Positions 4,406 through 5,044 of a DNA stretch of 5,257 nt are shown here, piece after piece; within the stretch, counting starts at the first letter, position 1; the number at the start of each line of letters is the position of its first letter. The stretch is from Escherichia coli (lineage in GTDB: Bacteria; Pseudomonadota; Gammaproteobacteria; Enterobacterales; Enterobacteriaceae), in the NCBI RefSeq assembly GCF_003334385.1, contig NZ_QOWN01000082.1, one strand, 5' to 3'. The notes beneath the pieces were generated by a model. That model saw only the letters and a list, made by a program, of their open reading frames with translations, searched no databases and was not told where the DNA came from. Both the position numbers and the translations under genes were made by a program.

Positions 4406-4707
4406 GCCTAATTATGACAGGTGTAACAAGCATATTTTGCTATATAAATAAAATACATAATACTGATTATTGTAAGAACAGGAAGCAGACTAATGGTTTT
4501 TTTTGTGAGCACATTCCTTCTTATGTAGGAAGAGGCTGTATTATATTCAGTCAACTCTTTTTTACTAAAAACATTATCTATGCCATCAAAGTTGCCTGCT
4601 AGCTAATTTTTAGGATATCGCCTTGTCGTGGATTATGCACTCTAAACATGTAGAAGGTATTCATTACAAATACACAGACGGCCATCTTTTGTAAAATGGA
4701 TGCCGTT

Positions 4708-4803
4708 TTAAGTGAGATTCTGATTTTCAAATTGTTCCGGACTGAGACCGCCACACCAACTGTACCATCGCCAGCGATTGTAATCGCACTCGATATAATT
4801 AAG
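4708..4803 (-). pseudogene. IS3 orfB remnant: only the last ~30 codons
   Basis: The minus-strand frame ending in TAA (plus strand 4708-4710) encodes [27 protein letters not shown], versus the recalled IS3 OrfB C-terminus [27 protein letters not shown]. Confidence 0.7.
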
Positions 4804-4807
4804 TAAG

Positions 4808-4979
4808 TTTGCTGATTTTGCTGTTTACTGCGACAGATGTAAAGCTGTGGTGATTCATGCAGACTAAGTTCACGGACTCCGGCAGTAACACCGATGCATT
4901 CTGCAAGCTTCAGATCTTAACTACGAAATTCATGCGAATGGTGTTTACGTTTTTTTACTGGTTGAAACTGTTTTGTCTT
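4808..4979 (-). pseudogene. IS3 orfA remnant: start codon mutated, internal stop, 3' end deleted
   Basis: The position of the IS3 orfA ATG reads AAG here (plus strand 4977-4979). The orfA-like frame (...LKLAECIGVTAGVRELSLHE..) has a TAA at minus-strand 4919..4917 and indels relative to IS3. It stops at the deletion junction near 4800-4808. Confidence 0.7.
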
Positions 4980-5005
4980 GTGAGTCACCTCTGACTGAGA
5001 GTTTA

Positions 5006-5044
5006 CTCACTTAGCCGCGTGTCCACTATTGCTGGGTAAGATCA
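5006..5044 (-). repeat. IS3-type left terminal inverted repeat (IRL)
   Basis: The plus strand ctcacttagccgcgtgtccactattgctgggtaagatca is the reverse complement of TGATCTTACCCAGCAATAGTGGACACGCGGCTAAGTGAG. Confidence 0.8.

Follow-up and report, generated by a model that had tools for sequence, protein, structure and literature searches.

A short stretch of Escherichia coli DNA that begins like the insertion sequence IS3 and ends in the tail of the IS3 gene orfB, with most of what belongs in between gone, raises a simple question. Is it a miniature element, like a MITE, that the transposase of other IS3 copies might still move, or is it a dead fossil? The original prediction left the matter open. 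We examined the stretch within a window of 5,257 bp (the whole of the DNA analysed), which corresponds over its entire length to a block that many E. coli chromosomes carry between the fecIRABCDE operon and nanS/nanM/nanC. The evidence favors a fossil, not a MITE: the stretch lacks its right terminus, is bordered by unrelated DNA on its two sides, and has copies that share one and the same right flank. We refer to it as the ‘relic’. Very probably, it is an internally deleted, point-mutated and right-end-truncated fossil of the IS3 lineage that has spread by hitch-hiking, and that is immobile as a unit.

Anatomy of the relic

The relic occupies positions 4691–5044 of the window (354 bp), and reads on the minus strand. 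Alignment by BLAST with IS3A of E. coli K-12, our reference for the anatomy, fixed the deletion breakpoints and the right limit. The left arm (4807–5044, minus strand; 5044 to 4807 in the direction of the element) corresponds to IS3 nt 1–238, with 88.8% identity (E 5e-86), and comprises the left inverted repeat, the leader and the first ~57 codons of orfA. The right arm (4691–4802, minus strand; 4802 to 4691 in the direction of the element) corresponds to IS3 nt 1134–1245, with 83.9% identity (E 1e-30), and comprises the last 30 codons of orfB, the stop codon of that gene (TAA, 4710–4708) and the inner ~17 nt of the right inverted repeat. The arms share one strand and follow one another as in IS3, with a 4-nt filler, TTAC (4803–4806, minus strand), at the internal deletion junction between them. 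The architecture first proposed from the letters alone—an IS3 left repeat and 5' part of orfA joined to the last ~30 codons of orfB, with ~0.9 kb of interior removed—is confirmed by this alignment, and its breakpoints were correct to within a few bases. What is gone is IS3 nt 239–1133, about 895 bp, and with it went the remainder of orfA, the region of the frameshift and the complete DDE catalytic core of orfB. By the nucleotide homology of both arms, in the right order and orientation, the relic is an IS3 derivative; in RefSeq, both arms are already annotated as pseudogene fragments.

The part of orfA that survives is broken, too. Its start codon, ATG in IS3, is mutated to AAG (4977–4979, minus strand), and a TAA stop stands in place of codon 22, GAA (4917–4919, minus strand); both lesions had been predicted, and both are there. 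The TAA falls in frame because a 1-nt deletion and a 2-nt deletion upstream of it sum to 3 nt; a 3-nt insertion brings the number of indels in orfA to three. The orfA codons that remain differ from those of IS3 by 10 non-synonymous and 8 synonymous changes, a ratio that fits a pseudogene better than a constrained gene. The 354 bp contain no intact open reading frame of IS origin. In functional IS3, orfA and orfB together encode a DDE transposase by way of a programmed –1 frameshift; in the relic this arrangement is absent, and with the interior deleted and orfA broken it has no capacity to specify a transposase, just as had been foreseen.

The IS3 ends were originally described as retained. 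This is true of the left end, and untrue of the right. The left inverted repeat (5005–5044, minus strand), which we call IRL-a, is intact and begins TGATCTTACCCAGCAATAGTGGACACG. IS3 copies in unrelated contexts start matching precisely at window position 5044, and the TGATC terminus there is backed by three other copies of IS3 (L006, L011 and L012). The annotation of K-12 IS3A, we note in passing, begins three bases inside the element: in MG1655 (L003 1727–1732) the annotated copy is 1,255 bp long and starts TCTTACCC, and it is preceded by GCC instead of TGA. The first three bases of this copy seem to have been lost or mutated.

Functional IS3 elements have termini of the form 5'-TG...CA-3' at both ends, and on the right the relic lacks its half of this pair. 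Homology to IS3 ends at window position 4691, and in a distant-mode search of the 72,556 plasmids of PLSDB, all IS3 copies stop aligning at this same position. The stretch where the right inverted repeat should have its outer 13 nt (GTGGGTAGGATCA; 4678–4690, minus strand) agrees with IS3 at only 3 of 13 positions, and has no terminal CA. A real IS3 right terminus reads ...GGTAGGATCA; the ending ...AAGATCA, against which the right end had earlier been judged, is the complement of the left end. The 25 ‘extra’ bp said to follow the orfB stop are not extra, either, for in an intact IS3 the stop codon is followed by 30 bp. The suspicion that the right end is damaged was correct, then, but it is more than badly diverged: its outer tip is missing. 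Further in, decayed homology persists. A likeness to the inner right repeat can still be seen in the 17 nt that follow the orfB stop (TCCATTTTAC versus TCCATATTAC), and over the 30 nt up to the expected terminus there are 14/30 in-register matches (empirical p = 0.0075, that is, 0.75% of all offsets in the window reach this score). A copy on a Salmonella plasmid is slightly nearer to IS3 in this inner stretch, which supports the view that the homology is real. DDE transposases must cleave at the terminal CA. Judged by its sequence, the relic could not be moved as a unit, the right-hand cleavage site being absent. A hairpin at 4680–4707 was considered as a terminator and set aside; it is weak (z = –1.1 and –1.9), and the terminator scan was empty.

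Parentage, flanks and the order of decay

Canonical IS3 (K-12 IS3A; IS3 family, IS3 group) and the relic have the same 66-nt left repeat plus leader, and the same 5' part of orfA and 3' part of orfB, in agreeing order and strand. Unlike canonical IS3, the relic is without the 895-bp interior, the frameshift site, the DDE domain, a functioning orfA and the outer 13 nt of the right repeat; outside the left end it is only ~85% identical, and it has no 3-bp target duplication. A closer intact parent was not found in PLSDB, in either distant or near mode, the best match to the left arm being about 86% identical. The relic shares a few derived bases with two non-canonical variants, IS3H and L012var. 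The only close relatives of the right arm in PLSDB are truncated fragments. The closest of these are IS3-like right-end fragments on an E. coli plasmid (L007), 96.8% identical to window 4802–4709, and on Shigella dysenteriae plasmids (L008), 93.6% identical to the same interval. These fragments differ from the relic in having a complete right repeat (...GGTAGGCTCA), in having nothing to the left of IS3 nt 1074, and in lying at other loci. The L008 fragment (2441–2625; IS3 nt 1074–1258, complete right repeat) sits between ospZ and the omptin gene icsP, and is thus near an omptin gene, as the relic adjoins an omptin fragment.

That omptin fragment is the left flank of the relic. It is a 70-bp internal piece of an OmpT/OmpP-like protease gene (5045–5114, plus strand), truncated by the IS3 left end at one edge and by the end of an IS1 at the other. 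It shares 95.8% identity with an inner portion of an omptin gene on a plasmid, and it translates in frame as QHFKMPYIGLTSNYLYDSFEFG, versus QHFKMPYIGLTGNYRYDSFEFG in the plasmid gene. Its presence at the left end indicates that an element of the IS3 lineage inserted into an omptin gene, which was later cut by IS1 as well. (RefSeq places a 63-nt ‘hypothetical protein’ over this fragment.) On the other side of the relic, positions 4406–4690 have no similarity to omptin. Nor is there a 3-bp target-site duplication of the kind that a functional IS3 has: the left flank reads TTG on the element strand, and the right reads CCG or CTG, according to the position assigned to the end. This absence is to be expected, since the right boundary is a secondary rearrangement rather than a transposition junction. 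We found no ‘empty site’ by which the original insertion could be defined. In PLSDB, the right flank and the ymgB region beyond it were found only downstream of the relic, with no empty site and in no other context.

From these features we infer an order of events. An IS of the IS3 lineage, a variant ~85% identical to canonical IS3, would have inserted into an omptin gene on a mobile segment, one that now lies beside the fec iron-citrate operon. About 895 bp would then have been deleted from inside this copy, the frameshift site and the entire catalytic domain among them. The start codon of orfA would have been lost, and one stop and three indels gained. The outer 13 bp of the right inverted repeat would have disappeared together with the other half of the omptin gene. 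The relic now persists only by hitch-hiking: by vertical inheritance with the fec-adjacent island, and by occasional carriage on IncF plasmids in larger, IS1-bounded segments.

Parsimony suggests that both arms came from a single copy. They might instead be pieces of two neighboring copies of the IS3 lineage, joined by deletion or recombination, and there are grounds for considering this. The region has at least two IS3-type left ends in direct orientation (IRL-a at 5044, and a second, IRL-b, at 3851), and so more than one IS3-lineage copy must once have been present. The right arm, moreover, has a far closer relative (96.8%, L007) than the left (about 86%), and the junction between the arms contains the 4-nt filler rather than a clean microhomology. 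Against this, the arms share a strand and come in the right order, and they stand at similar distances from canonical IS3 (about 85% identity for nt 67–238; about 87% for the orfB part). The left arm has 3 derived bases in common with IS3H and L012var. And the L007/L008 fragments end at IS3 nt 1074, so that lineage offers no left arm. On balance, we consider a two-copy origin improbable.

Copies of the relic and the fec-side block

To see how the relic is distributed, we searched 5,426 complete E. coli genomes with short probes. One of 45 nt, which can seed only across the deletion junction, found 1,724 places, 1,690 chromosomal and 34 on plasmids, in 1,695 of the 5,426 genomes (median 1, maximum 3 per genome). 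An 86-nt probe made up of relic and right flank found 1,726 places, 1,689 chromosomal and 37 on plasmids, in 1,696 of the 5,426. The near-equality of the two totals, 1,724 versus 1,726, indicates that one and the same right flank accompanies the copies of the deleted form. About 31% of the complete E. coli genomes, then, have the relic, and 2,061 of the 5,426 have the omptin fragment joined to the left end. For the few genomes with two or three copies of the relic we infer segmental duplication, and we do so only because the flank counts match. Had the relic been transposing as a unit, other copies with 3-bp duplications of their own might have been anticipated; the probes show one shared right-flank context.

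The relic is present in E. coli B, BL21 and T7 Express. K-12 is without it: the left-junction probe matches there, at best, only the 40-nt IS3 repeat. In K-12 and B, the fec cluster lies inside a phage-like element, KpLE2, according to a published comparison (PMC3032704). Table 3 of the same paper, a comparative study of the E. coli W genome (PMC3032704), also counts partial copies of IS3 in strain B. Partial copies of insertion sequences are commonplace in E. coli, and by itself the relic is of little weight. Its value is partly one of annotation, for two RefSeq pseudogene fragments become one internally deleted relic of the IS3 lineage, and partly practical, for the exact deletion junction is a handy lineage marker for the block on chromosomes and IncF plasmids.

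The plasmid copies tell the same story as the chromosomal ones. In PLSDB, the right flank is the same in 46 of 46 near-identical copies over 26 bp or more: 43 plasmids contain junction and flank in full, two copies end 26 bp past the relic with a break at 4656, and one (L010) is cut by IS1A at 4809. This last, from H279, matches from the deletion junction and was considered as an undeleted form; it is not, for an IS1A insertion or deletion does the cutting at 4809. Plasmid copies hold the whole block—IS1, omptin fragment, relic and ymgB-like gene—from which it follows that copies of the relic have moved inside larger segments. E. coli, Shigella flexneri and Salmonella are among the hosts of these plasmids. 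The Salmonella plasmid copy differs by 4 SNPs within the relic and has the same lesions, which indicates that the lesions predate the spread of the block. No match to the exact deletion junction was found among 100,044 GTDB species-representative genomes. An 85%-identical ‘orthologue’ on the Salmonella plasmid pNEW1 (L009) might be taken for a sign of ancient divergence. We rejected it as such, because small indels occur throughout the record and few genes are annotated in it; it looks like an error-rich assembly.

The relic forms part of a nested pile of IS scars (IS1, omptin fragment, IS3, IS5 fragment, solo IS3 left end and IS629 fragment, in turn) that marks a widely shared fec-side block. 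At one end of the window, the IS1 copy is represented by its terminal repeat and the 3' end of its transposase gene (5115–5257, minus strand; the IS1A of L010 matches 5257–5115). This copy runs past the window end towards fecI, and in full loci ykiE and fecI come next. On the other side of the relic, 286 bp downstream and on the same strand, is a YmgB/AriR-family gene (4112–4405, minus strand), which adjoins the relic in all of the copies that were examined in detail (L001, L002, L010, L013, L014 and L015). Beyond this gene are fragments of IS3-family and IS5-family elements (about 3660–3986), and, further still, tnpB and tnpC of an IS66 (54–1782, plus strand).

Two features of the block deserve mention in their own right. 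An intact gene of the ‘esterase-like activity of phytase’ type (2021–3394, minus strand) encodes a protein of 457 aa with an apparent signal peptide, and is surrounded by IS debris. It is a conserved part of either structural variant of the block, and occurs also on many plasmids. And on an IncF plasmid of Salmonella Typhimurium (L015 6273–7241), a full-length IS5-family transposase gene stands beside the ymgB-like gene, where the window has a fragment only (3856–3986). The L015 plasmid may preserve an older state of the block.

The left ends and what they might still do

The first 66 nt of the relic (4979–5044, minus strand) are identical to IS3, IS3H and L012var. The next stretch, nt 67–238, has 24 differences unique to the relic, the result of about 21 mutational events, and is ~85% identical. 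By our own arithmetic, a uniform spread of these events would leave 66 nt clean with P about 0.001, and so simple neutral decay does not predict the pattern. The simplest explanation is conversion of the left end by resident copies of IS3, since active variants of IS3 are equally invariant over their first 66 nt, and since most E. coli genomes carry IS3. Residual constraint on the left end is the alternative. The 66 nt are not wholly without variation, for one lineage (L014 and L015) has a SNP within them, G57A.

IRL-a is not the only left end in the window. IRL-b, a second and solo IS3 left end (TGATCTTATCCAGCAAT; 3835–3851, minus strand), has the same orientation as the relic. It is 17 nt long in the window and 35–38 nt long in L002 and L013; in the window and in L001, a further 18 bp have been deleted from within it. 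A long form is seen in pNEW1 (L009). IRL-b directly abuts, and is interrupted by, the terminal repeat of another element, an IS629/IS1203-like right end of the IS3 family (3660–3834, plus strand). Of this element there remain a transposase C-terminus, ...AEAEKAYYASIGNDDLAA, and a terminal repeat ending GGGGCGGTTCA; the family is presumably IS629, going by this terminal repeat. Intact IS629-like copies, up to 50 per genome, stop matching the window at 3834.

The two left ends bound a deletion. About 370 E. coli genomes (the 2,061 with the omptin junction, minus about 1,690) have a variant of the block that is without window 3838–5006, and that has lost the relic, the ymgB-like gene and the IS5 fragment (e.g. 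L004 4001–4090, in E. coli WGS1363). At the junction of this variant, ...TTTAAAGTG is joined to TGATCTTATCC...; that is, the tip of IRL-b, recognizable by two diagnostic bases, is joined to omptin DNA 3 bp outside IRL-a. The stagger of IS3 is said, after Sekine and Ohtsubo, to be 3 bp as well. In copy-out/paste-in elements, the donor end attacks just outside the recipient end (PMC7780238). It is conceivable, if rather unlikely, that IS3 transposase from other copies still recognizes the left end of the relic, and that the ~370-genome variant is the footprint of its action between two directly repeated solo left ends. If this were true, dead IS ends would remain active sculptors of the fec-side island. 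Homologous recombination between the two left ends, with loss of one TGT from a TGTTGT repeat, explains the variant junction equally well. A strict figure-eight strand transfer between IRL-b and IRL-a does not explain it: by our own strand-polarity reasoning on the published mechanism (PMC7780238), ends in direct repeat would give an inter-strand junction in which IRL-a is kept.

Might the relic, or its left 66 nt, have been put to use, either as a promoter or leader for the ymgB-like gene or as a transposase binding site that drives local rearrangements? The clean 66 nt beside heavy decay could be read in this way, as could the position of the relic, 286 bp upstream of the gene on the same strand, the occurrence in PLSDB of the gene region only together with the relic, and the endpoints of the ~370-genome variant at the exact tip of IRL-b and 3 bp outside IRL-a. 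But the promoter and terminator scan gave no enrichment, and placed no site within the left 66 nt; Rfam yielded no matches. The ~370 variant genomes have neither the relic nor the ymgB-like gene, and so neither is indispensable. One lineage has G57A within the 66 nt, and these are just as invariant in active IS3 variants, for which gene conversion is the simpler account. Co-option of this kind strikes us as very unlikely. The relic is an ordinary fossil, widespread only because its block is widespread.

The IS-derived MITEs of bacteria (e.g. MITEAba12, PMC6382973) resemble the relic in being small and non-coding, and in keeping IS-end sequence; they have two matched terminal repeats, target duplications and many loci, whereas the relic has one usable end, no duplication and a single context. 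That the relic is such a non-autonomous element, still moved by IS3 transposase from other copies, is scarcely credible. The relic is short, at 354 bp, and codes for nothing, its left end is wholly preserved and matches that of active IS3 exactly, IS3 sequence occurs in 4,280 of the 5,426 E. coli genomes, which makes active IS3 in trans plausible, and a mini-IS3 with both ends intact does exist on a plasmid (L006), but the relic itself is without the terminal 13 nt on the right, CA included, and so has no matched pair of terminal repeats, its unrelated flanks have no target duplication, its deletion-junction counts equal its same-right-flank counts, and a median of one copy per genome in one right-flank context is not the multiplicity of loci, each with its own duplication, that a MITE displays. 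The mini-IS3 just mentioned, on E. coli plasmid NS-NP030_P1 (L006, 2442–2918), is like the relic a short, non-coding IS3 with a large internal deletion. Unlike the relic, it joins IS3 nt 1–181 to nt 960–1258, is 99% identical to canonical IS3, and keeps both termini; it represents a recent and independent deletion that is, in principle, still mobilizable, and a better candidate for mobility than the relic.
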